Assembly: GCA_043803405.1 (NCBI GenBank)
Contig: JAZDKB010000023.1
Coordinates: 12,863 to 76,862 of the forward strand
Origin: Spirochaetota bacterium
Lineage (GTDB): Bacteria; Spirochaetota; UBA4802; JAFGDQ01
Direction of reading: 5' to 3'
Length of the DNA stretch: 64,000 bases
The first letter of the stretch is position 1. The number at the start of each line of letters is the position of its first letter. The position numbers and the translations under genes are program-made. The notes beneath the pieces are model-generated. The model had not been told where the DNA came from. It did no database searches and saw only the letters and a list, made by a program, of their open reading frames with translations. Below are positions 1-22,341 of the stretch, piece by piece.

Positions 1-799
1 GATGCTTAATATATTCGATAACAGGTTTGCAGGCAGCTATAAATCCGCCGAGCGATGCGAAACTTTTGCTGAATGTGCCCATAATCATATCCGCTTTGTC
101 GTTCAGCCCGAATGATTGTGCTGTGCCCCGGCCGTTTCCGAGCACTCCAAGCCCGTGAGCGTCATCTATCATTATGCGCGCGTTGTATTTTGAAGCTATT
201 CTCGCAAGGTCGGGCAGGTTTACGATGTCCCCCATCATGCTGAAAACGCCGTCTGTTACGATCAGCTTTCCGTAATCTGCAGGAAGCTTAGAAAGCTTAT
301 TTTCGATATCCTTCATGTCGTTATGCCTGTATTTAACCACAGCATCCCTGCCTATTGTCCCCTTAACTATAAGAGCGCCCTGGAATATACTGGAGTGATT
401 TTCCTTGTCGCAAAGCAGAACATCCTTTCGTCCCATAAGCGGCGTTATGGCTCCCTGGTTTGTCTGAAAGCCTGTGCTGAAAAGCAACGCCGCTTCCTTG
501 CCTAGGAAAGCCGCAAGCATTTCCTCAAGTTCAGTATGAATATCGTAACTCCCGTTTAAAAGCCTGGAGCCGGAACAGCCTGTACCGTATCTTGTTATTG
601 CCTGCCTGGCTGCTTCCTTTACGCGCGCGTCGTCCGTAAGCCCCAGATAGTTATTTGAGCCTGCCATAATTACTTTTTTGCCGGCCATTGTCACCACCGG
701 CCCCTGGTTCTCGGATATGCCGCAAAAATACGGGTAACAGCCCATATCCCTTAATTCCTTGTGACGCGCGAAATCTATGCATTTATTAAATATATCCAT
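1..799 (-). CDS. spt: Alpha-oxoamine synthase family PLP enzyme, probable serine palmitoyltransferase (runs off the left edge)
   Basis: Not in the ORF track; manual translation gives MDIFNKC...GSNNYLGL...[10 protein letters not shown]...DGVFSM...DDAHG...GTFSKS (PLP lysine). Neighbours are KDSR-like and bCerS-like genes. Confidence 0.8.
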
Positions 800-879
800 C
801 GGATTTTACCTTGCTTTCTCGGCACAGAAGTCGAGTTATTAAAAAATATTATGACAATCTGCCATATTTTACTTTCAGC

Positions 880-1704
880 TTAAGCTTTTTTTGATAATGA
901 TTTGTTGATTATATGATCCATTATTGGCGGCGTTAGCCGTTTAATAAGGTAAGAAAGTTTTACCTTAAATCCCGGCAGAATAATGAATTGATTTTTTTTA
1001 ATGCCTTTAAGCAGCTTACGGGCAATATATTGAGGCTTTAAAGGTTTTATGTTGCCGGATATAAGCCTTGTTTCTTCAGGTTTCATTAAGTTCTCGGCAT
1101 GAAAACCCGGCGTATCGGTATCGGGCGGGCATAGAACCGACACCCGTATGCCATACTGCTTTACTTCGCTTCTTAATGCTTCGGAAAATCCCATCATGGC
1201 GAATTTGGAAGCGCAGTAATCCGTGTAACCGAATAATCCAAGATATCCTCCCATAGATGACGTATTCACTATATGGCCGCCTTTTTTTTTCATAGCCGGG
1301 AGAAGAGCTGATATGATGTTCCATATCCCGAAAAAGTTCACTTTAAAGGTCTCTTCCAGTTGATGAAATGTAATATTCTCAAAATAATCGGGCAGGGCGC
1401 GCCCTGCGCAGTTTATCAGCAAATCAGGAGCCCCGAATTTAGCTGTCGCCTTTTTCATTACTTTTTTTATCTGAGCGATATCGGTCACATCAAGCTGTAT
1501 GGAAGATACGCGGTTGCTCACAGGGCTTTTCATCCTTCTAATTTCGTTTTCCGCATAAGTTAGCAAACTTTGATTTCTCGCAAAAATAATAACATCAGCT
1601 CCCTTCGATGCCAGCAGCATGGATGCTGCCAGGCCTATTCCGCTTGAACCTCCTGTGACAAACGCCGTTTTTCCGATAAATGAATTCATATATTGATAAA
1701 TCAA
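880..1704 (-). CDS. SDR oxidoreductase, 3-ketodihydrosphingosine reductase (KDSR)-like; ATG at 1689 is an alternative start
   Basis: TGGSSGIG, YCASK, and PPDTDTPGFHAENLMKPEETRLIS, which matches the KDSR/FVT1 signature as recalled. Confidence 0.8.
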   Translation of the reverse strand: MIYQYMNSFIGKTAFVTGGSSGIGLAASMLLASKGADVIIFARNQSLLTYAENEIRRMKSPVSNRVSSIQLDVTDIAQIKKVMKKATAKFGAPDLLINCAGRALPDYFENITFHQLEETFKVNFFGIWNIISALLPAMKKKGGHIVNTSSMGGYLGLFGYTDYCASKFAMMGFSEALRSEVKQYGIRVSVLCPPDTDTPGFHAENLMKPEETRLISGNIKPLKPQYIARKLLKGIKKNQFIILPGFKVKLSYLIKRLTPPIMDHIINKSLSKKA

Positions 1705-1705
1705 T

Positions 1706-1747
1706 TAAGAACCTGTTTCGTTATTAATCCGCCTAAACAGGTGCTTA
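1706..1747. repeat. Short inverted repeat, possibly a collapsed IS-end remnant
   Basis: TAAGAACCTGTTT (1706-1718) / AAACAGGTGCTTA (1735-1747), one mismatch. Confidence 0.4.
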
Positions 1748-1941
1748 CTGATAGAACGCTAATTTAACGACTGATCTATTGATCAGGCTGTAAATAACCG
1801 GTTTTTTAATCGTAAAATATCATGGATGATGATAAAATATTTATTTGGGAATTATAAATATTATGTTTAATAATTAAATATGCTTTGGGTCGTAGTATTA
1901 ATACGATTTCGCTATGGGTTAGACACAAGAGGATGGATCAA

Positions 1942-3099
1942 TCAGCCTATTTTTTTCTCATATAATCTGTAAGTTTTGTATATTTCGCACTTTAAACGTT
2001 TTAACGCGTTTAATAATCTTGTATTGGTTTCAACGACCATGCAGCAATCCGATGATTCATAACCCATTGTCGTTCCGGTCTCAATGGTTTTTAAATAAAA
2101 TACGGTATCGATCATTTTTCTGCGATGTTCCGGTAAAACTCCCATAATTATTGTGCGCAGCCTGTTTGTGGATTTTATCATTTTAAGGACTTTAGGCAGC
2201 TGCCATGGGTACATCCTTCCGTTTAAATATTTCATCGCCGGGCTTGTATCAGGTATGGACACTATAAAGCCGACTGTTTCCCCGTCCTTTTCGGCGAAAA
2301 TAGTAAGCTCAGGGATGATGATCATTGATAATTCTTTAAAAAGTTCGTCAAACTGCCTGTCAGTTAAAGGCAGGTGCCCCCAGTTGCTTTCCCATGCCTT
2401 GTTGAATATTGTTTTTATATCCTGTGCCCGTGTTTTTATCTCGCTTTTTTTTAATGTGGTAAAAGTAACATCTATCTTTTCCATAAGACTGTTCCGGACA
2501 CGGTCAAGGAAGGGTTTGTAGTCTTCTATGTCTTTTACCAGCACGCAATGCCAGTCCGCGCATTTAATGAACCCGCAGGCTGAAACAAAATCCTTGTAAT
2601 AGGGAGCGTAATGACCCAGGCCTGTTACAGGAAGAACGTTTTCGCCGTGAACTTCGAATCCTATCTGGTCATATATGGAAAAGTTCTGCGGGCCGTTTAT
2701 TTTGCTTTTCCCTCTGGATAACAGCCAGTCTTCAGCTGCGGTAAAAAGCGCTCGCGCAACATCAATATCATTAATTGATTCGAAAAATCCGAAAAAACCC
2801 GTTTCCTTGTCGTATTTTTCTTCGTATAATCTGTTGATATGCGCAGAAATTCTTCCTGATGGCTTTCCGTTTTTATAAGCAAGGAAATATACGGCTTCGC
2901 CGATTTCGAAAAAATATCCTTTCTTAGGATCGAGAAATTTTTTCTGTTCTTTGATGATGGGCGGGACCCATGCAGGGTCATTTTCATAAAGACCGGCAGA
3001 CCACGGCAGCATTATGAATTCTTTCAGCATCGATTTTGTGGTAACCTTCTTTACCGTTACGGTTCCCGTATTCCGGATTTTTAAATTATTCTCAAACAT
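1942..3099 (-). CDS. GNAT-fold acyltransferase, YghO/bacterial ceramide synthase (bCerS)-like
   Basis: DPAWVPP...GRISAHIN...GFFGFFES...FNKAWESNWGH...MGVLPEHR motifs; lies beside an spt-like gene. Confidence 0.75.
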   Translation of the reverse strand: MFENNLKIRNTGTVTVKKVTTKSMLKEFIMLPWSAGLYENDPAWVPPIIKEQKKFLDPKKGYFFEIGEAVYFLAYKNGKPSGRISAHINRLYEEKYDKETGFFGFFESINDIDVARALFTAAEDWLLSRGKSKINGPQNFSIYDQIGFEVHGENVLPVTGLGHYAPYYKDFVSACGFIKCADWHCVLVKDIEDYKPFLDRVRNSLMEKIDVTFTTLKKSEIKTRAQDIKTIFNKAWESNWGHLPLTDRQFDELFKELSMIIIPELTIFAEKDGETVGFIVSIPDTSPAMKYLNGRMYPWQLPKVLKMIKSTNRLRTIIMGVLPEHRRKMIDTVFYLKTIETGTTMGYESSDCCMVVETNTRLLNALKRLKCEIYKTYRLYEKKIG

Positions 3100-3240: not shown

Positions 3241-5151
3241 TTAGCGCGAGTCACCTCTGTTTTTGCCTGGCTGTATTTTAAATATTTGTACATCAAAATA
3301 GCCCAGTCCTATAGTTTTAAAAAGACTATCGGGATTAAAATATTGCTTATAATGAGTGAAAATATTTTTTTCAAAAGTAGTTCCCGGGCTTACTGCAAAA
3401 TATACAGGCGCGTCATTTTTATATACGGATAGGCTGCCTTTTTTGTCCGCTGAAACAGGGATTTCTTTTCCGTGGATCAGGTCTTCAAGCAAAGAAGCAT
3501 TGTATCTTAAATCCTTCTGAACTATAATGGCCGGGTTTTTGCTCTCAATGACGAGTCCGGCCGACCAGCTGCCTGCCACAACGGCATTGGGTTCAATCTC
3601 CATGCTCAGCTCTTTTGATATGTTTATCATTTTGTTCTCATGGAATAGCGCCCATTTGCCATATTGAAAAAGCTGTATTATCAAAATAAGTATAATGAGC
3701 GCATAAGGCAGCCTGCTGTAACTTAAAATTTTACGCATGTATTTCTTTTTAAAAATTATATAAATAAGACATGCTGCTGAAATAAAAACGCAGCCGCATA
3801 TAAGTATCAACAGGTAATCCGGGAAACCGGACTCCGCTTCCCTATATATCCAGTGCATTAATGCTTTTTTTGATTTGAATGGAACGACTTGAAATGCCAA
3901 AGTAATTATGACATACACAGACGCGAGTACTGATGTTGCCAGCTTGAAAATACCGAACAGCTTACCCTGTTTATTTAAAATAAAAAGTTTTAATTCATCG
4001 TCTTTTAAGCATGTAACTGACCGGCTGCACAGTATTACGAGCGGTATGCTGATGAGCATATAATAACGGGAAGGATGATATTCCAGCAGGGTCAGCATCA
4101 GGAAGCCGAATATGAGCCACGAGGACAGTATAAAGTCCGTGTTTTTTATTTTTGGATCATTCAAATATTTTTGAAAGGAATAAATCGCATAAATAATTGC
4201 AGTAAAAAAAGTTAAAGGCTGCAGAAAGACAGCTTCAATGAACAGGGCTTTGCCAATCATCAAATAAATAGGATCAAAATCAGGGAATATTTCAATGAGC
4301 GCACTTATAAAAGAGATCTTATTAAGTATTCCTTTATCGAATAATGAATCTACTAATTTGATATGGGCGAAAATAATATAAAATATCCCGAAAATAAGCA
4401 ATATCCTGCTGAATTGTTTTTTCAGTTTTTTAGAACTGTAATGAAAATATTTATTTAAAAATATTATTATCAGGCAGGGTAAAACCGCTGCAACAGCCAG
4501 CAATACGGATTTTTTTATGAAAAAAGCTGAAGCCAGCGTCAGGGTTCCGGTTAAAATAAGAATTATTCTACGGAAAAGAATTTTATTTGTGAGGGATTTT
4601 TTTGAATCCGTATTATCCCTGAAATCTGCAAATGCTTCAGTGAATGCGAAGAGGGCAGCCATTAAATAAAAGTTAAGATGCGTTTCATAAAAACCAATCC
4701 TGTTGTACATTATTAGAAAATAATTCGCAGCATATAGAACCGAAGATAAATTAGCGCAATCTTTACCATAATTTCTCTTAATAAAAAAGTACAACAGCAG
4801 AAGCGTAAACATGGAATAAATAACAGACAATATCCGTATCGAAAAAAAATTTACACCAAGAAGTTTAAAAACAAGCGCGTATGTGTATACTGAAAGCGGG
4901 CTTTGATTCTTCCAGCCAGGATACTCGTCCAGGGGCGTCCATTTCCAGTCCCCAAAAAGTTCAAGGTTCCTTGGCTCGTAGATTTTAAATCCTTCGTCCG
5001 TATATAATGCTGCGGAAAAGCTCATGTCCCCAGGCGGATCTGCATTGATAAAAGCGGTTCTCATCAATGCCGCGATTAAAATTATCGCGAAAATAATATA
5101 AATTTTTTTAAAATATATATTATTAAATATTTTTTCATATAAGGCAGGCAT
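3241..5151 (-). CDS. ArnT/PMT-like (GT-C) multipass membrane glycosyltransferase
   Basis: Early TM followed by a DEG motif, P(L)S..Y, many TM helices, RY motif; 636 aa. Confidence 0.7.
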   Translation of the reverse strand: MPALYEKIFNNIYFKKIYIIFAIILIAALMRTAFINADPPGDMSFSAALYTDEGFKIYEPRNLELFGDWKWTPLDEYPGWKNQSPLSVYTYALVFKLLGVNFFSIRILSVIYSMFTLLLLYFFIKRNYGKDCANLSSVLYAANYFLIMYNRIGFYETHLNFYLMAALFAFTEAFADFRDNTDSKKSLTNKILFRRIILILTGTLTLASAFFIKKSVLLAVAAVLPCLIIIFLNKYFHYSSKKLKKQFSRILLIFGIFYIIFAHIKLVDSLFDKGILNKISFISALIEIFPDFDPIYLMIGKALFIEAVFLQPLTFFTAIIYAIYSFQKYLNDPKIKNTDFILSSWLIFGFLMLTLLEYHPSRYYMLISIPLVILCSRSVTCLKDDELKLFILNKQGKLFGIFKLATSVLASVYVIITLAFQVVPFKSKKALMHWIYREAESGFPDYLLILICGCVFISAACLIYIIFKKKYMRKILSYSRLPYALIILILIIQLFQYGKWALFHENKMINISKELSMEIEPNAVVAGSWSAGLVIESKNPAIIVQKDLRYNASLLEDLIHGKEIPVSADKKGSLSVYKNDAPVYFAVSPGTTFEKNIFTHYKQYFNPDSLFKTIGLGYFDVQIFKIQPGKNRGDSR

Positions 5152-5210: not shown

Positions 5211-6467
5211 TTATGCGCTTATTGAAAGAGCATCCGCTTCGGTTACATGCTCGCTTCGCAGATTTTTCTTTTCGGTATTTTCTTTGAAAACTTTTATATA
5301 CTCTTTAACCATTTTGTCCCAGGAATAGTTATCGTTGGTGAATTTTTTTGCCTGCTCGCCGAACTTTCTGAACGAGACAGGGTCGGATAACGATTTGGTG
5401 ATAAAGTTTATCCACGCATCTGCGTTGCCGGGCTCCAGCAGAAATCCGTTCCTGCCATTTACGATCGCGTCAGTTATACCTTCCAGTTTAGAAGCGGCAA
5501 CAGGCAGACCGCATACTGCTGCTTCAAGTGCCACAAGCCCGAAACCCTCAGCGTCGCCGCTGACTTTTATGTTCGGCATAACAAACAAATCCGAGTGATG
5601 GAGAATCTGTATCATTGAATCAAAGCCCTGTATACCAAGAAAAAATACCCTTTTTTCGAGGTTTCTTCTTTTAATGGCATCGATTATTTTCGGCTTGTCT
5701 TCTTCAACAGCAAATAAAGATCTGATCTGCCGCGACAGGGATGGAGGTATATATTTCAGAATTGAATGAAGTTTTGAATTATTATGATTTTCAGCTCCTA
5801 TTATCAGGTAAATAATTTCATCATCAAGCACAGTCATTACATTTTCAACAAACCATGAAAAGCCTTTGCGGGTTACAGCCCTCCCTATTGAGACCAGTAT
5901 TTTTTTTTCTTTAAGTGAGATGCCTAGCTGATTCTCCAGTTTTTTTCTGAAATCATCCTGCCTGGCAATATTACCTATATTGCCCTCAACGCCGTTGCGG
6001 ATTGTGAATATTTTTTCAGGATCCATCCCTCTTTTTATGCATTCGATCGCTGTGGAACTGCTCACAGGGATAAGGCCGTCAAAGTTTTTAAATTTGCTCA
6101 CAATATATTTTTGAAAGAGTTTATTAGGGAAAACCACATCAAGACCGTGCAAAGTTACGAATATGGGGATGTCGGTTATTTTCTTTAATAATAAACCCAC
6201 TACAGCCATTAAACCGTCATTTAAATGTATAAAGGAGATGCCGGGATTATCTCTTAATATTTTTTTTACGTTTGGTATTACGGAAAAAAAGAATTTTATC
6301 CTGCTTGTTCTTCCATCGTATATTATTCGTTTTACGTTATATTCCTGCGATATTCCTTCTATCAGTTCATAGCTTTGTTTTTCCATTCCGCCTATTGAAG
6401 GCGGGTATTTATGAGTTATAAATAGTGGCTGCATTTGCGTAACCTTCGGATTCATTTTCTTTTTCAT
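5211..6467 (-). CDS. GT4 glycosyltransferase (start may be 6434)
   Basis: YPPSIGGME N-terminus, GRAVTRKG, EGFGLVALEA. Confidence 0.9.
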   Translation of the reverse strand: MKKKMNPKVTQMQPLFITHKYPPSIGGMEKQSYELIEGISQEYNVKRIIYDGRTSRIKFFFSVIPNVKKILRDNPGISFIHLNDGLMAVVGLLLKKITDIPIFVTLHGLDVVFPNKLFQKYIVSKFKNFDGLIPVSSSTAIECIKRGMDPEKIFTIRNGVEGNIGNIARQDDFRKKLENQLGISLKEKKILVSIGRAVTRKGFSWFVENVMTVLDDEIIYLIIGAENHNNSKLHSILKYIPPSLSRQIRSLFAVEEDKPKIIDAIKRRNLEKRVFFLGIQGFDSMIQILHHSDLFVMPNIKVSGDAEGFGLVALEAAVCGLPVAASKLEGITDAIVNGRNGFLLEPGNADAWINFITKSLSDPVSFRKFGEQAKKFTNDNYSWDKMVKEYIKVFKENTEKKNLRSEHVTEADALSISA

Positions 6468-7503
6468 CTTTTATCTTTAAATTGTGTAACCTTGTAATCA
6501 GTATAAACGGTATCATCCCTAAAAGTATCCAGAATATCTGCCGCGCTCTTTTTATTATTGATACAACGACCCACGCGTATGGTTCGCTGATGTTCGCGAG
6601 CTGGAGCATAAGCTTGTTGGCGTATTCTTCTACGCCGATCTGCCCGGGCACAAAAGAGCCAAGGCTTTTGAATACCATAACGCCGATTTCAATTCCTATG
6701 CATTCAATGAACGATATCCTGATCTTTATGAAATACAGGATCAGGTAAAATTCCGCTGCTCCCGCAATGCGGTGGAAAAGTGAAAGGAAATACGCTGCCC
6801 AGTATTTTGTTTTTTTTTCGTTGTAAAACGCGTTAAGGCATTCGTTTGCTTCGCAAAGTCTGGTATGCGCGTTTGTCATCCATGTCCATTTAAAACCGGA
6901 AATAAGCCTGCAAACCGGATACAGAATCCCTTTTTGATTTTTGAAAAAATAGAACGATATAAGCATAAGTAAAATACTGATAACCGAAATCGCGGTTATA
7001 GTTATAAATGAAGGGAAAAAGTCGAAATATTCGAAAAATATGACAAAAAAAATGACTATCAAATGCAGGCCGGAAATGATTATAAGGAACCTGGACATTG
7101 TTATTGAGCTCAGGCTTTCTGCCGTGGATAATCCGTGTTTTTTCAGGTAATAAAGCTTTAATGTGTCGCCTGCGAGCACATTTGCGGGATTTATCTGCGC
7201 AAAGCTTTCCCCGATTAGCCGTACAAAGAACAATTTAAATACGCTTATTTTATGTTCCGATTCGTGCAGGCACAGTTTCCATGCTATTGAAGCCAGGAAG
7301 TAAGAAAATCCCGTAACGGCTATGATGAACGCGAAACGCCAGTTGATCCTCAGCATTTGTTTTGAGATATTTTCAAGCTCGGAATTGGCTATGAATAAGC
7401 AGACCATCAAAAGGCCGAAACCCAGAAATAATATCTTGAGCAGGCGGGAATTTTTAATTGTGAATATCGGAATTTTACTTTGTTTTTGCTTCATATTGTC
7501 CAT
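6409..7503 (-). CDS. LPG_synthase_TM family flippase-like membrane protein
   Basis: GESFAQINPANVLAGD and VPGQIGVEE motifs, multiple TMs. Confidence 0.8.
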   Translation of the reverse strand: MDNMKQKQSKIPIFTIKNSRLLKILFLGFGLLMVCLFIANSELENISKQMLRINWRFAFIIAVTGFSYFLASIAWKLCLHESEHKISVFKLFFVRLIGESFAQINPANVLAGDTLKLYYLKKHGLSTAESLSSITMSRFLIIISGLHLIVIFFVIFFEYFDFFPSFITITAISVISILLMLISFYFFKNQKGILYPVCRLISGFKWTWMTNAHTRLCEANECLNAFYNEKKTKYWAAYFLSLFHRIAGAAEFYLILYFIKIRISFIECIGIEIGVMVFKSLGSFVPGQIGVEEYANKLMLQLANISEPYAWVVVSIIKRARQIFWILLGMIPFILITRLHNLKIKDEKENESEGYANAATIYNS

Positions 7504-8710
7504 GCGTATAATTCCCGGTCAGCTTGCCGTAGTAGTTCAGCAAATCTTCGGACAGGAACTCCCATCTTTGTTTAAGAGCATATACCCTTGCATTTTTAAC
7601 GATTTTCCTTGCGCGTTCCGGATTATTCAGCAGGTATAGTATTTTTGAACAGAAATCGGCGGCATTTTCCGGCTGAGCGAGCAAGCCTGTTTTCATGTTT
7701 TCTATTATCCCCAAAGGCCCGCCTTTGGCAGCTGCAACGACAGGCAGGCCGGAAGACATTGCTTCAAGGACAACATTTCCGAAAGTCTCGGTAATGGAAG
7801 GGAAAACAAAAATATCGCTGGAAGCGTAAATCCTGGCAAGGTCGTCTTTGATGAGATTCCCGGTAAAAACAGCTCCGGGCATCTTCTTCTTCAGATAGTT
7901 TAGCTTCGGCCCGTCGCCTGTAACGACCAGTACGACATCATTTCTTTCTTTCTTCAGGTAATTATTTATTTCGATAAGGGTTTTTAAGTCTTTTTCCATA
8001 ACAATGCGGCTAACGAATAAAATACTTTTTTTATCTTTGCCGGTGATGCCTTCCATATATCCTGTATCCCGTTTTGCTGGATTATATAACGAGTAATCCA
8101 CACCTCTTCCCCAGATAAAAAGACGCTTTTCATCAATACCGGCGTCAACCATTTCATCTCTAATAGGACGCGTGGGCACTAGGGCGGCATCGCATTGATT
8201 ATAAAACCACAAAATTATTTTCCATACAATAGTTTGAATAAAAGCACTCAACATGAAAGAAAATCTGAAATAATATTTTATATATGCCGCAAAATGAGTG
8301 TGATATGTGCCTATGAGCGGGAGATTATTGAATTTCGCGTATTGTACCGCATACTTTCCGAGAAACGACGGCGTTGTAAAATGGATTAAATCCGGGCTGA
8401 AATTATCGATTTCCTGCTTCAGCGTTTTCGATATTTGCGGCAGGCCAAGACGGTATGTCTTGTTCAAAGGAAAAGTGATATAAGGACACTGTAAAACTTT
8501 ATATCCGAATGAATTCTCCGGCGGATACGGAGTAATAAAAAGAAATTCATAATTACTTCCTTTAATATGTCTAAGGAAGTTAAATATGGTATTGCTTACA
8601 CCGTCAATGTTTTCTTTCAGCACATCGGTAAACATTGCGACTTTAATTTTTTTGTTCTTTGTGTTACTTGTTTTTATAGAGTCAATATTTAATATATTTC
8701 TGATAAACAT
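7475..8710 (-). CDS. GT4 glycosyltransferase, glycolipid synthase-like
   Basis: GVSNT, YHTHF, WGRGVD, ETFGNVVLEAMSSG. Confidence 0.9.
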   Translation of the reverse strand: MFIRNILNIDSIKTSNTKNKKIKVAMFTDVLKENIDGVSNTIFNFLRHIKGSNYEFLFITPYPPENSFGYKVLQCPYITFPLNKTYRLGLPQISKTLKQEIDNFSPDLIHFTTPSFLGKYAVQYAKFNNLPLIGTYHTHFAAYIKYYFRFSFMLSAFIQTIVWKIILWFYNQCDAALVPTRPIRDEMVDAGIDEKRLFIWGRGVDYSLYNPAKRDTGYMEGITGKDKKSILFVSRIVMEKDLKTLIEINNYLKKERNDVVLVVTGDGPKLNYLKKKMPGAVFTGNLIKDDLARIYASSDIFVFPSITETFGNVVLEAMSSGLPVVAAAKGGPLGIIENMKTGLLAQPENAADFCSKILYLLNNPERARKIVKNARVYALKQRWEFLSEDLLNYYGKLTGNYTHGQYEAKTK

Positions 8711-13296: not shown

Positions 13297-14358
13297 ATGA
13301 TTAATTTTGCGCTTGTAGGATGCGGCAGGATTGGAAAGCGCCATGTAGATCTGCTGGGGAACAATCAGATAAAAAACGCGCGCCTTGCCGCTGTTTGCGA
13401 CGTAGTGGAAGAACGCGCAAAAGATTTCGGTTCCAGGTACAATGTGCCTTATTATACCGATATGGACCGCATGATGGAAACCGAAAAAAGCATAGATGCC
13501 GTTTCGATCCTGACGCCAAGCGGCCTGCACGCAGGCAATGTTATAAATCTCACAAAATATAAAAAGCATATTCTTGTTGAAAAACCGATGGCTCTCACCT
13601 TAGACGATGCCGATGCCATGATCGCGCAATGTGCGGAAAACAACATTAAGCTGTTTGTCGTAAAGCAAAATCGTTTTAATGTTCCGGTAAGGATGCTGCG
13701 GAACGCGCTTACTGAAGGGCGTTTCGGCAAACTGATATTCGGGACAGTAAGGGTGCGCTGGTGCAGAAGGCAGGACTATTACGATCAGGACTCCTGGCGC
13801 GGCACCTGGGCTTATGACGGAGGCGTATTCGCAAACCAGGCAAGCCATCATATTGATCTGCTTGAATGGATGATGGGCGAGGTGGATTCCGTGTTCGCGA
13901 AAAGCACTACTGCTCTTGTTAATATTGAAACCGAGGACACAGGCGTAGTAATCCTCAGGTTCAGAAACGGCGCCCTGGGAGTTATTGAAGCTACTACAGC
14001 CGCGCGTCCGAAAGACCTTGAAGGTTCCATATCCATACTGGGTGAATACGGTACAGTGGAGATCGGAGGTTTTGCTGTAAACGAAATGAAGGTATGGACA
14101 TTCGTTCCTGAGAGGCCCGAGGATAAGGAAATTTTAACAAAATATTCGGTGAATCCTCCCAATGTATACGGCTTTGGGCATAAAGAATATTACGATGATG
14201 TCGTAGACAGCATAATCAATAATACGAAAGCTCTTGTGGACGGCCTTGAAGGAAGAAAAAGCCTTGAGCTGATTTCGGCAATATATGAATCCGTTGAAAC
14301 CGGCCGCGAAGTATATCTCAGGTTTAAACCTCAGAGATGCAAGCTGGGTATATTATGA
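13297..14358 (+). CDS. Gfo/Idh/MocA nucleotide-sugar 3-dehydrogenase (WbpB/WlbA-like)
   Basis: [24 protein letters not shown]. Confidence 0.9.
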
Positions 14359-14948
14359 TAGCATCGACAGCCTTAGTTTATCCGGATGTAAAGCTGGGGG
14401 AGAACTGCATCATCGAAGATTATTGTATAATAGGAGTGCCTGTTGCAGGGCATAAAAAAGTGGAAACTATCATAGGGGATAATGCCGTTATCCGTTCACA
14501 TACTGTAATATATGCCGGGAATATTATAGGAAACAATTTTATGACCGGTAATAAGGCGAATATCAGGGAGCTCAATGAAATCGGCAATAATGTAAGCATT
14601 GGCACCATGAGCGTAATAGAATATAATACGAAGATATCCGATAATGTAAGGATTCATTCCCATGCTTTTATTCCCGAGTTCACGGTTCTGGGACGCGGTT
14701 GCTGGATCGGGCCAAATGTTGTAATTACTAACGATCGTTATCCCAAATCTCCTGCAGATAAAAAGAAGCTTCAGGCAGTTAATGTAAACGAAAATGCGAA
14801 GATAGGTGCAAACGTAACGATTTTACCGGGAGTTATTATCGGTAAAAATTCGCTTGTTGGCGCAGGAAGCGTTGTGACCCATAATGTAAAAGAAAATTCA
14901 ATTTACTCAGGCAATCCCGCCAGGTTTTTTCGCAATATTCATTATTAA
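14355..14948 (+). CDS. Hexapeptide-repeat N-acetyltransferase (WbpD/WlbB-like)
   Basis: Left-handed beta-helix repeats, [21 protein letters not shown] overlap with the upstream stop. Confidence 0.85.
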
Positions 14949-15077
14949 TAATCAGTCTTAAGTTTGATCTGAAGCGGGTTATGCGCGGAGTTACCGTAGT
15001 ATTCTAATTTAAATATTATAATTACGCAGCCGGATTTCATTGTAAATAAGAATAATATAGAATTTAGAGGATAAGAA

Positions 15078-16178
15078 ATGATACCGTTCGTTGATTTAAA
15101 CAGGCAATATAATGAGATAAAGAACGAAGTGCAAAGTAAGATTGGCGAAGTGCTTGCTTCAAAGGCGTTTGTCCAGGGGAAGCATGCGAATCTGTTTGAA
15201 AAAGAATACGCGAAAGCGCATAAGCTCCCGTATTTTTTCGGATGTTCAAGCGGGAGCTGCGCTTTGCTTATCGCAGCCACTGCGCTGGGTTTATCCGAAG
15301 GTGATGAAGTAATTACAACGCCGCACACATTCATTGCAACTGCAGAGCCGATTTATCATCTTAAAGCCAAACCTGTGTTTGCGGATATTGATCCTGTAAC
15401 ATATAACATAGACCCGGCGAAAATTGAAAAAGCGATCACAAAAAAAACCAAAGCCATTCTGCCGGTGCATCTTTACGGAAATCCGGCGGACATGGACGCG
15501 ATTATGGAGATAGCCCGCGAGCATAATTTGCTTGTGCTGGAAGACTGCGCTCATGCACACTTCGCAGTTTATAAAGACCGCTATGTGGGAACATTCGGGG
15601 ACATAAGCGCTTTCAGTTTTAATCCTGGCAAAAACATGGGCGCGTACGGTGACGCGGGCGGAGTGGCGTCCACGCGCGAAGATCTGATAAAAAGGGCGCA
15701 AAAAATATTCGATCACGGCCGCCTTGATAATTACCTGCACGACATGATAGGATATAATTTTCGTCTGGATGGGATACAGGGCGCAGTGTTGTCAGTGAAA
15801 CTTAAATATATTCCGGAATGGACAAAGAAACGCGTGGAAAATGCAGAGCTGTATAATAATTTATTTAAAGATCATACGAACATTATTACGCCCAGGGCAA
15901 TGGAAGGCTGCGGGCATGTTTATCATTTATACGTTATACAGGTGAAAAACAGGGATCTCGTTATAAAACATCTGAAAGATAAAGGCATTGATGTCCGCAA
16001 TCATTATCCTGTGCCGCTGCATCTTCAGCCGGCTTTTAATTATCTCGGATACGGAAAAGGGGATTTCCCTGTTACCGAAGAAGTAGCGAACAGGGTTGTC
16101 AGCCTTCCGATTTTTCCGGAACTGACGGGTGATGAGATTTCTTTTATTGCAAACGAAGTGATTAGTGTTGCTGAATAA
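15078..16178 (+). CDS. DegT/DnrJ/EryC1/StrS aminotransferase (WbpE/WlbC-like)
   Basis: MIPFVDL, PVHLYG, EDCAHA, SFNPGKNMGAYGDAG. Confidence 0.92.
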   Translation: MIPFVDLNRQYNEIKNEVQSKIGEVLASKAFVQGKHANLFEKEYAKAHKLPYFFGCSSGSCALLIAATALGLSEGDEVITTPHTFIATAEPIYHLKAKPVFADIDPVTYNIDPAKIEKAITKKTKAILPVHLYGNPADMDAIMEIAREHNLLVLEDCAHAHFAVYKDRYVGTFGDISAFSFNPGKNMGAYGDAGGVASTREDLIKRAQKIFDHGRLDNYLHDMIGYNFRLDGIQGAVLSVKLKYIPEWTKKRVENAELYNNLFKDHTNIITPRAMEGCGHVYHLYVIQVKNRDLVIKHLKDKGIDVRNHYPVPLHLQPAFNYLGYGKGDFPVTEEVANRVVSLPIFPELTGDEISFIANEVISVAE

Positions 16179-16198
16179 TATAATGAAGAGATATTTTT

Positions 16199-17155
16199 AT
16201 GTACAGAAAGAAGAAGATATCGCTGGTAATTCCTGCGTACAATGAAGCAAAACTGATAAAGCCTACGCTTGATGGAGTGCCGAAGCTGGTAGACCGCATT
16301 TATGTTGTCGACGATAAAAGCACGGACAACCAGAATAAAGTTATCCTGGATTGCGCGAAAAAAGACAAAAGAATAGTGCTGCTTAAACACGATGTTAATA
16401 CAGGCTGCGGGGGCGCAATTATTACAGGATATCTCAGGTCCAGCATGGATGGCTACGACATTATTCTTGTAGTCGGGGGCGATAATCAAATGCCTCTTGC
16501 CGAGGCGGCCAATCTTCTTGACCCGCTTATAGACGGGAAAGCCGATTACGCCAAGGGCAACCGTTTTATGCTTTCTCAGTTTAAAAAAACAGTTTCTAAA
16601 ATGCCACGTCTCAGGTTTTTCGCGAACTGGATTTTAACCGCTCTTACCAAGATATGCTCTGGATACTACAAAACATCTGATGTTGTGGACGGATATACTG
16701 CAATAAGTAAAAAAGCAATTGATACTATCAATTGGTCGAAAGCGTGGAAAGCGTACGGTTACCCGATAGATTTCCTGACCCGTTTAAACGCGTACGGTTT
16801 TAAGGTGATTGATGTGCCCCGTACGGCAATTTACCTTGATGGCCAGGTGCAGTCCCAGATTAAAGGCCTGAACTATTTTATTAAAGTTTCGCCGATGATA
16901 CTTCGCAATTTTTTCTGGCGCCTTAATTTTAAATATCTGTATCTTGACTTTCATCCTCTCGTATTTTTCTATTATTTTTCCATTATTTTAATACCCTTAG
17001 GCCTTGCGCTCGGCATTTATCTGGTGCTGGATAAATTCTTCCTGGGAGATACTCATGTAACGCCATCAATGAGCATTCTCACTGCCCTCCTTCTTGTGAG
17101 CGGATTTCAGTTTCTGCTGTTCGCGATGTTTTTCGATATGCAGGAAGGAGTGTAG
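16199..17155 (+). CDS. GT2 glycosyltransferase, polyprenol-phosphate sugar synthase-like, with two C-terminal TMs
   Basis: IPAYNE, VDDKSTD, KGNRF, C-terminal TM pair. Confidence 0.85.
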   Translation: MYRKKKISLVIPAYNEAKLIKPTLDGVPKLVDRIYVVDDKSTDNQNKVILDCAKKDKRIVLLKHDVNTGCGGAIITGYLRSSMDGYDIILVVGGDNQMPLAEAANLLDPLIDGKADYAKGNRFMLSQFKKTVSKMPRLRFFANWILTALTKICSGYYKTSDVVDGYTAISKKAIDTINWSKAWKAYGYPIDFLTRLNAYGFKVIDVPRTAIYLDGQVQSQIKGLNYFIKVSPMILRNFFWRLNFKYLYLDFHPLVFFYYFSIILIPLGLALGIYLVLDKFFLGDTHVTPSMSILTALLLVSGFQFLLFAMFFDMQEGV

Positions 17156-17172
17156 TTCTGGCAGGGTTAACA

Positions 17173-18183
17173 ATGCGTATTCCCGCGAATCTGGGTGAAC
17201 ATTGCCGTATAATAACGGAAGAAGCAATAGATATTGACAGATGCTTCAGGGATTTTTCCGTTGCCGCAGGAGAAAAGCTTCTCAGGTATTATATGGCTCC
17301 GGTTTTAAAATATATGCCTACAGGCCTGCGGTATGCAGTAACTGATATTGCCAAGCGCTTACGCAATCCTTCGCGAAAGGTTAACTTGAATTATCCGATG
17401 GATTTTATTGAAAACAGAAAAATCGTCAGAAGATTAAAAAATGATCTCAGGCCATGGTGGGGTAAAAAAGCCGTAGTCTCTATTTCTCACGATGTGGACA
17501 ACGACAGGGGCTATGCCTTTGTCTCAAGAATGGCGGAAATGGACCATAAAGCAGGGATCATGTCCGCGTTTAATTTTCTTACGCATGATAATTATGTTCC
17601 GGATAAAAGCGTGCTTGAGCATCTTAAAGGCATGGGGATGGAAATAGGACTTCACGGATATACGCATGACCAGGGATTTGCTTTTCGCAGCCGCGTGAAT
17701 ATGGCAAAGCAGCTCGCTGCCGCGCTTTCGGCCCTTGAAGGATTGGGTATAACCGGCATAAGAACTCCGGCATTGTCGAAGAGCCGGGCATACTTCGCTG
17801 CAATACGGGAAGCAGGATTAAAATATGATTCTTCAATGCAGATAGGGTCCGGCATATATCAGGGCGTAAGGCTGCCTTACCCGTATTATTTTGAAGAGTT
17901 CGGTATATGGGAGATACCGCTAATGATACAGGATGATAATTATCTCAGGGATTCAGCCACAAACGAGAAAGACATGCTTTCATCTATCATACGTTTTATT
18001 GAAGAGACCATTGCACTTAACGGCGTTATGGTGCTGAACATGCATCCTCACCTGATGTGCGACAGAAGCAGCCTGTATCTTAAGGTTCTTGACGCTCTTT
18101 CGGACTACAAAAAAGAAGTCAGCTTTACAGCAACAGGCATGATTTATGAATACGCGGAACAGCAAAGAAAAGAGAATGTTTAA
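17173..18183 (+). CDS. Polysaccharide deacetylase family protein
   Basis: SHDVD, EIGLHGYTH, YDSS, WEIP, NMHPH. Confidence 0.85.
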   Translation: MRIPANLGEHCRIITEEAIDIDRCFRDFSVAAGEKLLRYYMAPVLKYMPTGLRYAVTDIAKRLRNPSRKVNLNYPMDFIENRKIVRRLKNDLRPWWGKKAVVSISHDVDNDRGYAFVSRMAEMDHKAGIMSAFNFLTHDNYVPDKSVLEHLKGMGMEIGLHGYTHDQGFAFRSRVNMAKQLAAALSALEGLGITGIRTPALSKSRAYFAAIREAGLKYDSSMQIGSGIYQGVRLPYPYYFEEFGIWEIPLMIQDDNYLRDSATNEKDMLSSIIRFIEETIALNGVMVLNMHPHLMCDRSSLYLKVLDALSDYKKEVSFTATGMIYEYAEQQRKENV

Positions 18184-19898
18184 TGAATAAACATCATAAA
18201 AATACCGGATATCCGGTAATATATAAATATATTGCTTTATGTATAATTATTGCTTCCGTCGCTTACGCTGTTCATTATTTTAATTACATGGCGACACCTA
18301 CTGAAGATTTTATATCCAATTTTCGCCAGAAAGTCCTGGATATTCACGCGGGTAAATATCCGGGCGCAAGTTATAATATTATGCCTGTGTTTCCCATTGT
18401 CCTCGCATTTTTAACGAAGATAAATCCGTTTCATTTTACGCACGACTCAATCTACGATACCGCAATTCTCCTTAATATTCTGCTTTTTATACCGTATATG
18501 TTTCTTGTATACGATATATTCCGGAGATTCCTTGAACCCCGGTTAAGCCTTGCGGCATTGCTTTTGCTTTCTGTCAATATAAATACTGCATACACCGCGG
18601 TAAATGCCGAGCTTGAAATGCTTATGACGCTTTTAATAGTATTTGCGATATGGCTGTCAGTCAGGGATTCGAAGTTTGCATACATCCCGGCATTTTTTGC
18701 GTCAGGAATAAAATATGATTCAGTGTTTATTATTCCGGCTGTCATGTTCCGTGATTTTTTTTTAAAGCGGCAAAGGATAATAACGCTTGTGCTGGGGGCT
18801 TTGTCTTCTGCAGGGGTTTGCCTCTGGCTGTTTCTTTCCGTAAAATACGGCAATTCATACGTTTCCGAAATTGCCAGCCGCGGCCCGAATATTTACATGT
18901 TCCCGATAGACTGCATTCTGACCGCTGCCGGTTTTGTGCCATGGACGGCAATGCATGGGTACGAATCTTCCGAACATTATTTTAAGATACCGCTTTATGC
19001 GGTTTCAGCGATATTCACATTGTTTGTGCTTGTCATCCTGGTCAGAGGCGTCATATTTTTATTCAGGCAGAAACGGAAAGAAGCTGTTTCCATACTGGTG
19101 TTCTTTTCCGGATTTGTTCTGATTCACATGATATACCAGAATACGAAAACAAGGTACGTGCTGCCCATACTTTGCTTTATGTACCTGTTCATGTTTTACG
19201 GCCTTCCGGGTGTGTCGTCTTTGCTGCGCCGGCTGCCGGTAGTGAAAATATCCGCTGAAACTTCGCGGATGATTACGCGGATATTTGCTTTCATTGCCGG
19301 AGCCGCATTTATCGCAGGTACGGTCGTAATACTCTTTAATTTACCGGCCACGCTTGTTATTTTTAGTTTTGTATTTACTGCGCTTCTTAGCATAATAATA
19401 TTCGCTGACGGGAATAAGGAAAGGAAACGTAATAAAATAATGCTCGCTCTTTGCGGCTGTGTAATAATTAATCTGTCGCTTTTTTACGGCGTCAGGACAA
19501 TGGATCATTACAGTTACAGGCGCGTGGAGTTTAAAGAGGCTGCCTTATGGTATTCTGCTCATTCCGCTAACAGCGACCGCATGCTCATAAGCATCACAGA
19601 TATGCCGATGTATTACACTGGCCTTCCGGCAAAGAGGTTTATCGGCGCAACGCAATTGAGAAGCACAACACTTGACGATCTTATCAAGGAACTTCACGAT
19701 GAAAAAGTGACCCATGTATTTGTTGATGATTTTTACATACGTCGTTACAGGATAAAAGATCCGAATTCCATTGAGAAAAAAGCATGGCTTTTTAAGGATA
19801 TAAGGGATAAAGGCGAGGCAACGAAGCGCTTTAAGCAGGTTGCGGCATTCGAGCCCAGGGCCGGAATTAAAAGCTATATGTACAGATTCATTCCGTGA
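18183..19898 (+). CDS. Multipass membrane protein, probable GT-C glycosyltransferase
   Basis: D in the first loop, PVFP, RYVLP, many TMs, soluble C-terminal domain. Confidence 0.6.
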   Translation: MNKHHKNTGYPVIYKYIALCIIIASVAYAVHYFNYMATPTEDFISNFRQKVLDIHAGKYPGASYNIMPVFPIVLAFLTKINPFHFTHDSIYDTAILLNILLFIPYMFLVYDIFRRFLEPRLSLAALLLLSVNINTAYTAVNAELEMLMTLLIVFAIWLSVRDSKFAYIPAFFASGIKYDSVFIIPAVMFRDFFLKRQRIITLVLGALSSAGVCLWLFLSVKYGNSYVSEIASRGPNIYMFPIDCILTAAGFVPWTAMHGYESSEHYFKIPLYAVSAIFTLFVLVILVRGVIFLFRQKRKEAVSILVFFSGFVLIHMIYQNTKTRYVLPILCFMYLFMFYGLPGVSSLLRRLPVVKISAETSRMITRIFAFIAGAAFIAGTVVILFNLPATLVIFSFVFTALLSIIIFADGNKERKRNKIMLALCGCVIINLSLFYGVRTMDHYSYRRVEFKEAALWYSAHSANSDRMLISITDMPMYYTGLPAKRFIGATQLRSTTLDDLIKELHDEKVTHVFVDDFYIRRYRIKDPNSIEKKAWLFKDIRDKGEATKRFKQVAAFEPRAGIKSYMYRFIP

Positions 19899-20035
19899 GC
19901 AGGTTTCCGTCTCCGGAAACTGCGTTAGAACCTTTATTGTTATATAATGTATTTCATCAGGAAATTGTGAGACTAAAGTTCATTGGTTTTGGGATGCCCT
20001 CTTAATATATATTAAAAAAAATTATGAGTTAAGGT

Positions 20036-21082
20036 ATGGAAAAAAGGAATAAATCAGGCAATCCTGAAGCTGTCAAAACCCGGAAAAAAAGCGAAATTCT
20101 GACTATTCGTTCATTTGTTATGCTGGCGTTTTCGATTGCGCTGGCAGTATTTCTTTTTCATCAGATTAATATAACAGAAACACTGCGCGCATTCAGCAGC
20201 GCGGATCTGGTTCCGGTTACAGCTGCCTGCTGCATATATTTTATTTCGAACTATTTCAAATCAATACGCTATAACGCGATCCTGAAAAAGTATTCAATCG
20301 GAGCTTTCAATATATTCGCGATTACTGCTTATCAGAATTTTTTTAATCAGTTGTTACCCGCGCGCGCAGGCGAGTTAACATTGATTTATTACATGAAGAA
20401 AATTGCGGGGGCAGATGTTTCCAGCGGGTTCCATGTCCTTTTAGTGACCAGAATATATGATTTTATAGTTGTAGCCGCTTTTTTTATTATTTCACTGGTA
20501 ATTTATAGCGGTCACAATATGCCATATTTCCTTATGATCGGGACAGGGTTATTTGTCGTCTCCATAATATTTTTATTCAGCATAAAGCGGATCGTCCATA
20601 TTGCGCAGGCGCTTTATAACCGGGCAATCGTTCGTTTTGGATTACTAGAAAAACCGGCAGCCATGAAACTAAAAAGCGGACTGGAAAAACTTGATACGGA
20701 ATTTTCGGATTATGATATAGCACGACAGGCTCCTGTTCTGGTGCTTACCAGTATTTTTGTATGGATAACGCAGTATCTTCTGGCGTACCTGGTTATTATC
20801 TCATTTGGAGTGAATCTAGGTATAGCTCAGTCAGTCGCAGGTTCAACAGGCCAGGTAATTGCCAATGTGCTGCCTGTGAACAGTTTCGGAAGTTTCGGCA
20901 CACTTGAAGCCGGCTGGACAGGGGGCTATGTGCTCGCCGGAATGAGTGCTCAGGACGCGATAACAACCGGCCTGGCATATCATTTCATAACACTGGCTGC
21001 GGCCATAATGCTTGCTTTCGTCTGTTATGGAAGCAGAAAAATCATCGAAAGCAGGCGATCCGCTTTAACGTTTCGTTCATAA
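20036..21082 (+). CDS. LPG_synthase_TM family flippase-like membrane protein
   Basis: NQLLPARAGE, RIYD, GSFGTLEAGW. Confidence 0.85.
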   Translation: MEKRNKSGNPEAVKTRKKSEILTIRSFVMLAFSIALAVFLFHQINITETLRAFSSADLVPVTAACCIYFISNYFKSIRYNAILKKYSIGAFNIFAITAYQNFFNQLLPARAGELTLIYYMKKIAGADVSSGFHVLLVTRIYDFIVVAAFFIISLVIYSGHNMPYFLMIGTGLFVVSIIFLFSIKRIVHIAQALYNRAIVRFGLLEKPAAMKLKSGLEKLDTEFSDYDIARQAPVLVLTSIFVWITQYLLAYLVIISFGVNLGIAQSVAGSTGQVIANVLPVNSFGSFGTLEAGWTGGYVLAGMSAQDAITTGLAYHFITLAAAIMLAFVCYGSRKIIESRRSALTFRS

Positions 21083-21189
21083 CAAATTCAATTTATTTCC
21101 CTTCGGCGCTTATCTTAACAAATAAATTATAATTCATTAACCGGAATTTATATAATTATAATTATTTATTTATGAAAATATATTTATTA

Positions 21190-21206
21190 TGTCACTTGGA
21201 TTTCAC
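21190..21206 (+). promoter_or_regulatory. Pho-box-like direct repeat
   Basis: TGTCAC-TTGGA-TTTCAC, 11-bp period, about 70 bp upstream of a phosphoesterase. Confidence 0.4.
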
Positions 21207-21276
21207 TCCTGCATCTTATTCGTGTTTTGTGTTTATTATTTAAAGAACAAATTTATTTTAAAGGACTATTGTCTCC

Positions 21277-22341
21277 ATGTTGCGGGTAAAATATATATTC
21301 AGAGTATTGTTTTCGATCTGCATTTACGGCGGCTTTGCTTTCAGTGCACTGGCAGATGAAGCTCCGAAAACAGGGACGCTTAAGTTTAAAACGGACGGTA
21401 CTTTTAAAATAGTTCAGTTTACAGATATCCATAACGATAAAAACACGGATCGCAGAACGGCCGCTCTTATTGAATCTGTATGCGATGATCAACAGCCCGA
21501 TGTCGTAATACTGACCGGCGATAATATTACAGGTAAAATAAGCAGCGCAGGCAGCGTGAAAAAAGCTATAAACGGTTTCGCCAGCCTCATTAACTCGCGT
21601 AAAATACCGTGGTTTATAGCATTCGGCAATCACGATGACGACCACGCGTCCGTTACAGGCATGACTAAGGATGCCCAGCTTGAGTATTATATGTCGTTCA
21701 GTCATAACATCAACATAGACATAGAGGATAACATAACGGGCGCCGGCAATATGTTTATCAATGTATATCATTCGGATGGATATCAGACAATAGTAAAGGA
21801 CGAGCCAGCGTTTATTTTATGGGCGCTCGATTCCGGGACTTATGCTCATAAGGTTATATCCGGCCAGCCGACTGAGGGATTGCCGAAATGGGACTGGATT
21901 CGTTATGACCAGATCGAATGGTATGTTAAAAATTCAAAATCCATTGAAGCGAAATACGGAAAAGTGCCTGGGTTTATGTTTTTTCATATTCCGATATTTG
22001 AATTTTCCCTGATGTGGGATCAAAAGGAAAAGCATGGGGTCACGGGAGAGAAAAATGAAAATATCAGCTGCGGTCCTTTTAACGGAGGCCTGTTCTCGGC
22101 AATTCTTGAACGTGGCGACATTAAAGGCGTATTTTGTGGGCACGATCATGTTAATAATTACATCGGAAATTATTATGGCGTATACCTGGGGTACGCGGCC
22201 AGCGCCGGTTTCGGGCCTTATGGCCTTGGCGGAAGCGGCAGGAACAGGCTTAGAGGCGCCCGCGTATTCATTTTAAATGAGAACAATCCGGAAAACTTCG
22301 AGAGCTATATGGTTTATGCTCATGATTACGGGATCCGGTAA
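21277..22341 (+). CDS. Secreted calcineurin-like metallophosphoesterase (DCR2-like)
   Basis: FTDIH, TGDN, GNHD, FFHIP, GHDH.N; signal peptide. Confidence 0.9.
   Translation: MLRVKYIFRVLFSICIYGGFAFSALADEAPKTGTLKFKTDGTFKIVQFTDIHNDKNTDRRTAALIESVCDDQQPDVVILTGDNITGKISSAGSVKKAINGFASLINSRKIPWFIAFGNHDDDHASVTGMTKDAQLEYYMSFSHNINIDIEDNITGAGNMFINVYHSDGYQTIVKDEPAFILWALDSGTYAHKVISGQPTEGLPKWDWIRYDQIEWYVKNSKSIEAKYGKVPGFMFFHIPIFEFSLMWDQKEKHGVTGEKNENISCGPFNGGLFSAILERGDIKGVFCGHDHVNNYIGNYYGVYLGYAASAGFGPYGLGGSGRNRLRGARVFILNENNPENFESYMVYAHDYGIR

Follow-up and report, generated by a model that had tools for sequence, protein, structure and literature searches.

A Spirochaetota gene cluster predicted to make dihydroceramide with a KDSR-clade reductase in the place of CerR

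Introduction

How might a bacterium with a serine palmitoyltransferase (Spt) and a bacterial ceramide synthase (bCerS) complete a ceramide if the reductase CerR is not found in its genome? The question is raised by the left end of a 64,000-nucleotide stretch of a Spirochaetota assembly (GCA_043803405.1, contig JAZDKB010000023.1), hereafter the window. The window corresponds to G000:C23:12863-76862, where G000 is the assembly under study (3.98 Mb, 94% complete), and coordinates are given within it unless another locus is named. Three genes at this end encode a GNAT acyltransferase, a short-chain dehydrogenase/reductase (SDR) and a pyridoxal phosphate (PLP)-dependent enzyme. An initial annotation, made from the letters alone, described them as co-oriented and the organism as spirochaete-like. 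They are indeed minus-strand open reading frames at the positions it gave (Table 1), and the closest named relatives, for the SDR and the GNAT alike, carry the titles Spirochaetes or Spirochaetota.

The proposal for Caulobacter is that bCerS acylates the keto base and that CerR, a periplasmic protein (PMC11087976), acts last (PMC11087976, PMC11765627). There is dispute over the order of the last two bacterial ceramide steps (PMC11087976, PMC11324152), and Spt is described as the only one of the eukaryotic enzymes with homologues in bacteria (PMC11087976). Reduction-first sphingoid synthesis has already been proposed for Bacteroides (PMC9278070) and for Pseudomonas MYb115 (PMC12134224). In the former, BT_0972 of Bacteroides thetaiotaomicron reduces 3-ketosphinganine and its gene is not clustered with spt (PMC9278070); in the latter, PfSgaC is a proposed eukaryote-like KDSR in a polyketide synthase (PKS)-Spt cluster (PMC12134224).

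The locus described here appears to be a real and coherent sphingolipid cluster, rare as an operon, with a gene set that is apparently class-wide. It is probable that its three enzymes would make dihydroceramide, in one order of steps or the other. The narrower proposal, a complete dihydroceramide pathway in which a KDSR-clade reductase takes the place of CerR and most likely acts before acylation, seems to us slightly better than an even prospect.

Identity of the three enzymes

The SDR contains PPDTDTPGFHAENLMKPEETRLISG, the KDSR/FVT1-type motif picked out by the initial annotation, and aligns column for column with KDSRs named from tunicates. Its conserved elements include TGGSSGIG, S145, Y158xxxK162 and PPDTDTPGF..EN..KPEET; the last of these, as PPDTDTPGF..EN..KPEET.LIS, is common to the SDR and animal KDSRs and is missing in a protein resembling NF049977, the model for BT_0972-type KdsR. 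A search with its C-terminal 178 residues gave 38 longer proteins, and five of these are named animal KDSRs at 39-47% identity. On an animal-KDSR profile of nine sequences (four named from tunicates and five unnamed, taken as animal by N-terminal extension and clade), the SDR is the best match in the assembly at 252 bits, the next SDR scoring 88; 21 other SDRs score 82-137.

In an IQ-TREE analysis (LG+G4, 54 rows picked from 138), the SDR shares one clade with eight animal KDSRs and other bacterial relatives (support 96/96), in keeping with its initial assignment to KDSR. The clade returns under the mixture model LG+C20 (39 rows, 96/86) and is weakly supported (0.39) in a FastTree of all 138 rows. 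Eukaryotic rows in these trees are animals only, with human, fungal, plant and protist KDSR absent. Within the clade the SDR has its own long-branched subclade (100/99), and it is the only KDSR-clade gene in the assembly. It scores 111 bits on NF049977, against a cut-off of 400, and NF049977-like proteins branch outside the KDSR clade in both IQ-TREE trees, BT_0972 being stood in for by proxies that score 219-281 bits on that model, below the cut-off. The initial label "eukaryote-type" thus holds for clade membership and implies no eukaryotic origin: identity is 37-42% to animal KDSRs and 50-71% to many bacterial proteins. Transfer from a eukaryote was considered and finds no support: the trees do not resolve the base of the clade, and they place the protein within bacterial sequences.

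The SDR lacks a hydrophobic N-terminal segment (hydropathy maximum 1.64, versus 3.42 and 2.09 in two animal KDSRs). Read from a TTG it has 274 amino acids (aa); the database protein P0001 begins at the ATG of residue 6 and has 269. Atlas models of eukaryotic KDSR clusters compare with it at TM 0.91-0.94 and one unrelated SDR cluster at 0.89, and neither solved structures nor fold comparison separate KDSR from other SDRs for this protein. An SDR-family profile run against PDB at E 1e-45 retrieved only a two-domain hydroxyacyl-CoA dehydrogenase, which is uninformative. The presence of Arg38 past the second strand would favour NADP(H). The SDR is predicted to be an NADPH-dependent 3-ketosphinganine reductase.

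The PLP enzyme, initially called SPT-like with BioF or Kbl as the other possibility, is placed by a tree of 39 rows in a clade of cluster-resident Spt from five lineages (95/95), as sister to the Bacteroidota Spt of cerR-spt-bCerS clusters (98/94). The genome's own BioF, whose gene lies between bioA- and bioD-like genes, falls outside this clade. The best PDB match is serine palmitoyltransferase (3A2B/8GUH, 398 bits), compared with 248 bits for the best BioF or Kbl and 186 for the cysteate acyltransferase 28EH. Among NCBIfam models the best is NF047600 (CFB-group Spt) at 502 bits, versus 358 for bioF and 340 for Kbl; the cut-off of this model, which is restricted to one phylum, is 640 and is not reached. 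The PLP lysine motif GTFSKS occupies residues 241-246. By kinship the protein belongs to bacterial Spt rather than to BioF, Kbl or ALAS, and serine and an acyl thioester are its predicted substrates. Elsewhere in the assembly (L086:8255-10952, on G000:C33), a second alpha-oxoamine synthase of 446 aa, with 400 bits on NF047600, is followed by a FemAB-like GNAT; this pair possibly represents another amino-ketone lipid pathway.

The GNAT is 28-33% identical, over its full length, to GNATs in spt-acp-cerR clusters of Sphingomonas, E. coli and Rubrobacter; such bCerS references were chosen by cluster position and record annotation, and the tested Caulobacter protein is not among them. Matches in 45 plasmid records (40 among the matches listed) cover 84-94% of its length and are annotated YghO, "dATP pyrophosphohydrolase" or N-acetyltransferase. 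An spt and a CerR-type reductase adjoin the GNAT in five of the eight plasmid records inspected (from Sphingomonas, E. coli, Rubrobacter, Streptomyces and Pseudomonas); the other three do not show both beside it within the stretch fetched, or are unannotated. A profile of its close family matches 74 of 81 Bacteroidota genomes, at up to 337 bits; of the 58 that bear CerR, 26 have the match and CerR within 5 kb of each other. The structure model (pLDDT 85.5) has tandem GNATs as its best fold matches, and searches of the sequence against PDB and NCBIfam gave no match. The gene is single copy in the assembly. The protein is, judged by homology, a member of the bCerS/YghO family and is predicted to N-acylate a long-chain base. 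Among 30 class loci cut at 1.5 kb, 16 share a recurring neighbour family with PAP2_3 as its representative; PAP2_3 includes inositol phosphorylceramide synthase.

Absence of CerR and conservation of the gene set

The initial annotation saw no CerR-like gene in the window, and this extends to the whole assembly. A profile built from five cluster-resident CerRs scores held-out CerRs at 190-305 bits, and its best six-frame match in the assembly reaches 49. Neither this assembly nor its sister genome of the same family, G002, has a match at E 1e-22, and the best matches in the former read by sequence as nucleotide-sugar enzymes. A 41 kb Phocaeicola stretch gave no CerR control; the sample of Bacteroidota genomes described below supplied one.

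In the class to which the assembly belongs, none of 122 genomes reaches 190 bits for CerR, and five lie at 150-188, one of them a bCerS carrier. bCerS is present in 56 genomes, a KDSR-like gene in 64, both in 50 and neither in 52, and 24 of the 25 genomes having this Spt clade also have a KDSR-like gene. All three genes occur together in 21 of the 122, and no CerR score among the 21 attains 150 bits. Most of these genomes have the genes at separate sites, and extended SDRs at 110-140 bits are present in many of them. Among 81 Bacteroidota genomes, CerR at 194 bits or more occurs in 58 and a KDSR-like gene in two, both without a CerR-level match. An extended SDR that stands beside 32 of 80 relatives of the SDR was tried as a CerR and rejected, since it scores 70-121 bits on the CerR profile versus 190-305 for controls. 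Two Bacteroidota loci (L070 and L083) have two tandem KDSR-like genes near Spt, in genomes with best CerR scores of only 113-115 bits.

The trio occurs in identical order in G002, with proteins 60-74% identical, which speaks against a chance neighbourhood; locus L006 and stretch L122, both from this genome, carry identical proteins and were counted once. Gaps here are about 240-250 bp between GNAT and SDR and 80 bp between SDR and Spt, and 27 and 31 bp in G002. Two genomes from the genus of the assembly under study (90% and 93% complete) lack all three core genes.

Wider neighbourhoods of the reductase family

The KDSR-like family is large, with 3262 matches among 8000 candidates scored at E 1e-30, other SDRs included. 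In three proteins (P0258, P0260 and P0263) an alpha-oxoamine synthase is fused to a KDSR-clade SDR in a single chain of 740 aa, the synthase halves falling outside the supported Spt clade; a metagenome scan using the Spt-like/SDR fusion gave no match. A KDSR-clade SDR adjoins Spt in L070, L082 and L083. Two loci of the same class (L119:8393-14384 and L120:6898-12916) have a KDSR-like gene divergent from FAAL, alpha-oxoamine synthase and bCerS genes, the synthase being of a different lineage. In capsule gene clusters of Shinella and Sinorhizobium (L268:1202-10804 and L269:1-8789), PKS, alpha-oxoamine synthase and SDR form a trio; this SDR, too, falls in the KDSR clade, which hints that the capsule may have an anchor of sphingoid type. 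At least five further settings connect the clade with alpha-oxoamine synthases, which suggests that keto-base reduction would be its old function.

Another conserved pair in this family joins the KDSR-like SDR to a 335-aa extended SDR (3Beta_HSD/epimerase), as in L009, L012, L033, L050, L132 and others of the 32 loci mentioned above. Its carriers are Dehalococcoidia, Chitinophagales, Smithella and Spirochaetota, whose genomes in many cases have no Spt or bCerS, and in P0253 and P0254 the two proteins are fused.

Proposed pathway and alternative explanations

In the proposed pathway, Spt would join L-serine and a long-chain acyl thioester to give 3-ketosphinganine, with acyl-CoA as the probable donor because of the kinship with Bacteroidota Spt and because the cluster has no acp gene. 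The soluble SDR would then reduce 3-ketosphinganine to sphinganine with NADPH, and bCerS would N-acylate sphinganine to dihydroceramide. Judging from the conserved neighbourhood, sugar head groups would be supplied by the products of the GT4, flippase-like, GT4 and GT-C genes that lie upstream, and export may be aided by the MacB-like permease encoded downstream. Replacement of lipopolysaccharide was also considered; lpxC is present in the assembly.

Several observations weigh against this pathway. The assembly is 94% complete, which limits the absence of CerR, and the only weak CerR-profile match that does not read as a sugar enzyme, the unassigned extended SDR at G000:C35:25766-26836 (L149:7791-8837), scores 47 bits; its neighbours include no lipid genes. 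The contiguous trio is found only in the two sister genomes, and the class counts come from related genomes that are not independent, and carry no P value. The alignments are without tested bCerS, CerR, human KDSR, TSC10 or BT_0972 sequences. A fold search with the SDR returns HSD17B13 first, with TSC10 (8JAT) outside the top 50 in a narrow Z range of 29.9-32.4, and by sequence 8JAT ties with HSD17B13. Among the best 80 of 524 GTDB relatives of the SDR, Spt lies within 10 kb in four loci, bCerS in one and an extended SDR in 32; among 78 metagenome loci, only 41 of them longer than 8 kb, there are none with Spt or bCerS and 31 with an extended SDR. Of 79 KDSR-bearing genomes 50 were searched: bCerS is present in 13 and absent from 37, and an Spt-level match (367 bits or more) occurs in 11, two of these outside the Spt clade. 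The family is thus mostly found away from sphingolipid genes and the motif alone does not predict ceramide synthesis; the case for it here rests on gene position, co-occurrence and the missing CerR.

The same enzymes could also reach the same product in the bacterial order, bCerS acylating 3-ketosphinganine and the SDR, although not homologous to CerR, then replacing it in the reduction of 3-keto-dihydroceramide, or the two orders could run in parallel. That use of sphinganine by bCerS is an assumption follows from the Caulobacter model, in which the keto base is acylated (PMC11087976, PMC11765627), and lagging reduction is described as allowing such acylation (PMC11765627); the CerR scores and the class co-occurrence fit this order equally well, as does the rest of the genomic evidence. 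However, the SDR belongs to a clade whose tested members use the free keto base, and which is also clustered with or fused to alpha-oxoamine synthases where no bCerS is nearby and the free base would be the natural substrate. Acylation before reduction, or alongside it, has a lesser though appreciable chance.

It may instead be that the SDR is a broader lipid ketoreductase, acting in salvage or epimerisation or on another amino-ketone or steroid-like substrate, and that the ceramide is reduced by another, unrecognised enzyme or left as keto-ceramide. Most family members do stand beside an extended SDR, sometimes fused to it, and away from Spt and bCerS, most carriers have no bCerS, and overexpression has shown reduction of keto long-chain bases by several unrelated SDRs (PMC11211663), so that activity and role can part. 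We consider this improbable, as bCerS and Spt flank the gene in two genera, closely so in G002; as the extended-SDR partner has been lost in its subclade and is missing from the assembly (best score 73 bits); and as the assembly has a single KDSR-clade gene while two genomes of its genus lack all three genes together. It is similarly unlikely that the cluster uses the same chemistry to make a sphingoid analogue from alanine or glycine (1-deoxy bases) or from cysteate (a sulfonolipid). The Spt score below the NF047600 cut-off would allow it, and 1-deoxy- and sulfono-ceramides are reported to be abundant in anoxic water (PMC11334938). Nevertheless, a tested Spt is by far a better structural match than the cysteate acyltransferase, the enzyme is sister to the Spt of Bacteroidota cerR-spt-bCerS clusters, and the glycosyltransferase block points to a C1 hydroxyl that could be glycosylated.

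Comparison with known systems

With the Spt-bCerS-CerR pathway of Caulobacter crescentus and Bacteroidota (PMC11087976, PMC11324152, PMC11334938), the locus shares Spt and a clustered bCerS/YghO tandem GNAT. It differs in that no CerR was found and a KDSR-clade classical SDR lies between bCerS and Spt, in that the cluster has neither acp nor an acyl-ACP synthetase, and in its upstream GT4, flippase and GT-C block. Eukaryotic KDSR/FVT1/TSC10 resembles the SDR in clade, in the segment PPDTDTPGF..E...KPEET.LIS, in 37-42% identity and in the catalytic S/Y/K, whereas the SDR has no N-terminal membrane anchor, is shorter (269 versus about 330 aa), is closer to bacterial relatives and has a GNAT, not a TLC-domain CerS, as its partner acyltransferase. 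BT_0972 (PMC9278070; NF049977) and the sulfonolipid reductases CapC/KCR (PMC11211663) are comparable cases, with reduction of the free keto base proposed in a bacterium that has a bacterial ceramide synthase. The SDR is of a different lineage, however, BT_0972 is unclustered with spt, and most sampled Bacteroidota keep CerR. PfSgaABC of Pseudomonas fluorescens MYb115 likewise has a KDSR-homologous SDR clustered with Spt and proposed to reduce 3-ketosphinganine (PMC12134224), and the SDRs of PKS-alpha-oxoamine synthase-SDR clusters share the KDSR clade with the SDR here, PfSgaC itself not being in the tree. There, however, an iterative PKS makes the acyl chain, the products described are free sphinganines and PG-sphingolipids, and no bCerS is named in that description (PMC12134224).

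The initial annotation proposed a hybrid Spt-KDSR-bCerS route. The enzyme families, the clade and the failure to find CerR support this in large part, the order of the steps being a prediction; its novelty was overstated, as reduction-first synthesis had already been proposed in bacteria (PMC9278070, PMC12134224). A literature search, covering few subscription papers, turned up neither a description of a KDSR-clade gene in a cluster with bCerS and Spt nor one of spirochaete sphingolipids. The new element would be a KDSR-clade enzyme replacing CerR beside bCerS, bacterial 3-ketosphinganine reduction as such being known from BT_0972 and PfSgaC.

A three-gene operon of soluble enzymes that combines bCerS with a KDSR relative makes the use of sphinganine by bCerS directly testable. 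Should the proposal be true, it would account for genomes that have Spt and bCerS yet no CerR, which three-gene screens miss, would add this class of Spirochaetota to the predicted sphingolipid makers, and would provide a soluble model of human KDSR that bears on where eukaryotic KDSR came from. A more speculative extension, which we hold as doubtful, is that the whole uncultured class makes glycosylated ceramides in the eukaryotic step order, the GNAT acylating sphinganine, with a reductase from an old bacterial KDSR clade that is repeatedly paired with or fused to Spt-like enzymes and is ancestral to eukaryotic KDSR.

Gene layout and neighbouring genes

The trio ends a run of seven co-oriented minus-strand genes that starts at 8710, in the order GT4, LPG_synthase_TM, GT4, GT-C, GNAT, SDR and PLP enzyme (Table 1).

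Table 1. Features of the predicted sphingolipid locus, in window coordinates
Feature	Position	Strand	Remarks
Spt-like alpha-oxoamine synthase, N-terminal 266 of 412 aa	1..799	-	whole gene G000:C23:12423-13661, 439 bases past the left edge of the window
KDSR-clade classical SDR, 269-274 aa, without N-terminal anchor	880..1704	-	adh_short; KDSR tree clade
bCerS/YghO-family tandem GNAT acyltransferase, 385 aa, predicted ceramide synthase	1942..3099	-	homology and fold
GT-C (PMT_2-like) membrane glycosyltransferase	3241..5151	-	PF13231; a homologue immediately precedes bCerS in G002 and G073, and Spt in G033
GT4 glycosyltransferase	5211..6467	-	PF00534/PF13439; same block in G002, G033 and G073
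LPG_synthase_TM (flippase-like) membrane protein	6409..7503	-	PF03706, TIGR00374 above cut-off; kept in G002, G033 and G073
Second GT4 glycosyltransferase, with which the co-oriented run begins	7475..8710	-	PF00534; kept in G002, G033 and G073
MacB-like ABC permease	outside the window, downstream of the PLP enzyme gene		

In G002 the whole order is retained, from the first GT4 gene through the permease to an additional gene of 193 aa that comes after it, at 51-74% identity. The glycosyltransferase block stands directly before bCerS in G073 and directly before Spt in G033, and thus travels with either core gene; the GT-C gene is likely part of a head-group module. A promoter and terminator scan gave no signal above chance level.

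A second glycosylation block, at 13297-22341, contains genes for a GFO/IDH/MocA oxidoreductase, a DegT aminotransferase, a GT2 and another LPG_synthase_TM protein, and could be the source of an amino sugar. Farther along the window, at 54339-57374, is a gene for an Eco57I/MmeI-like restriction-modification enzyme of 1011 aa.

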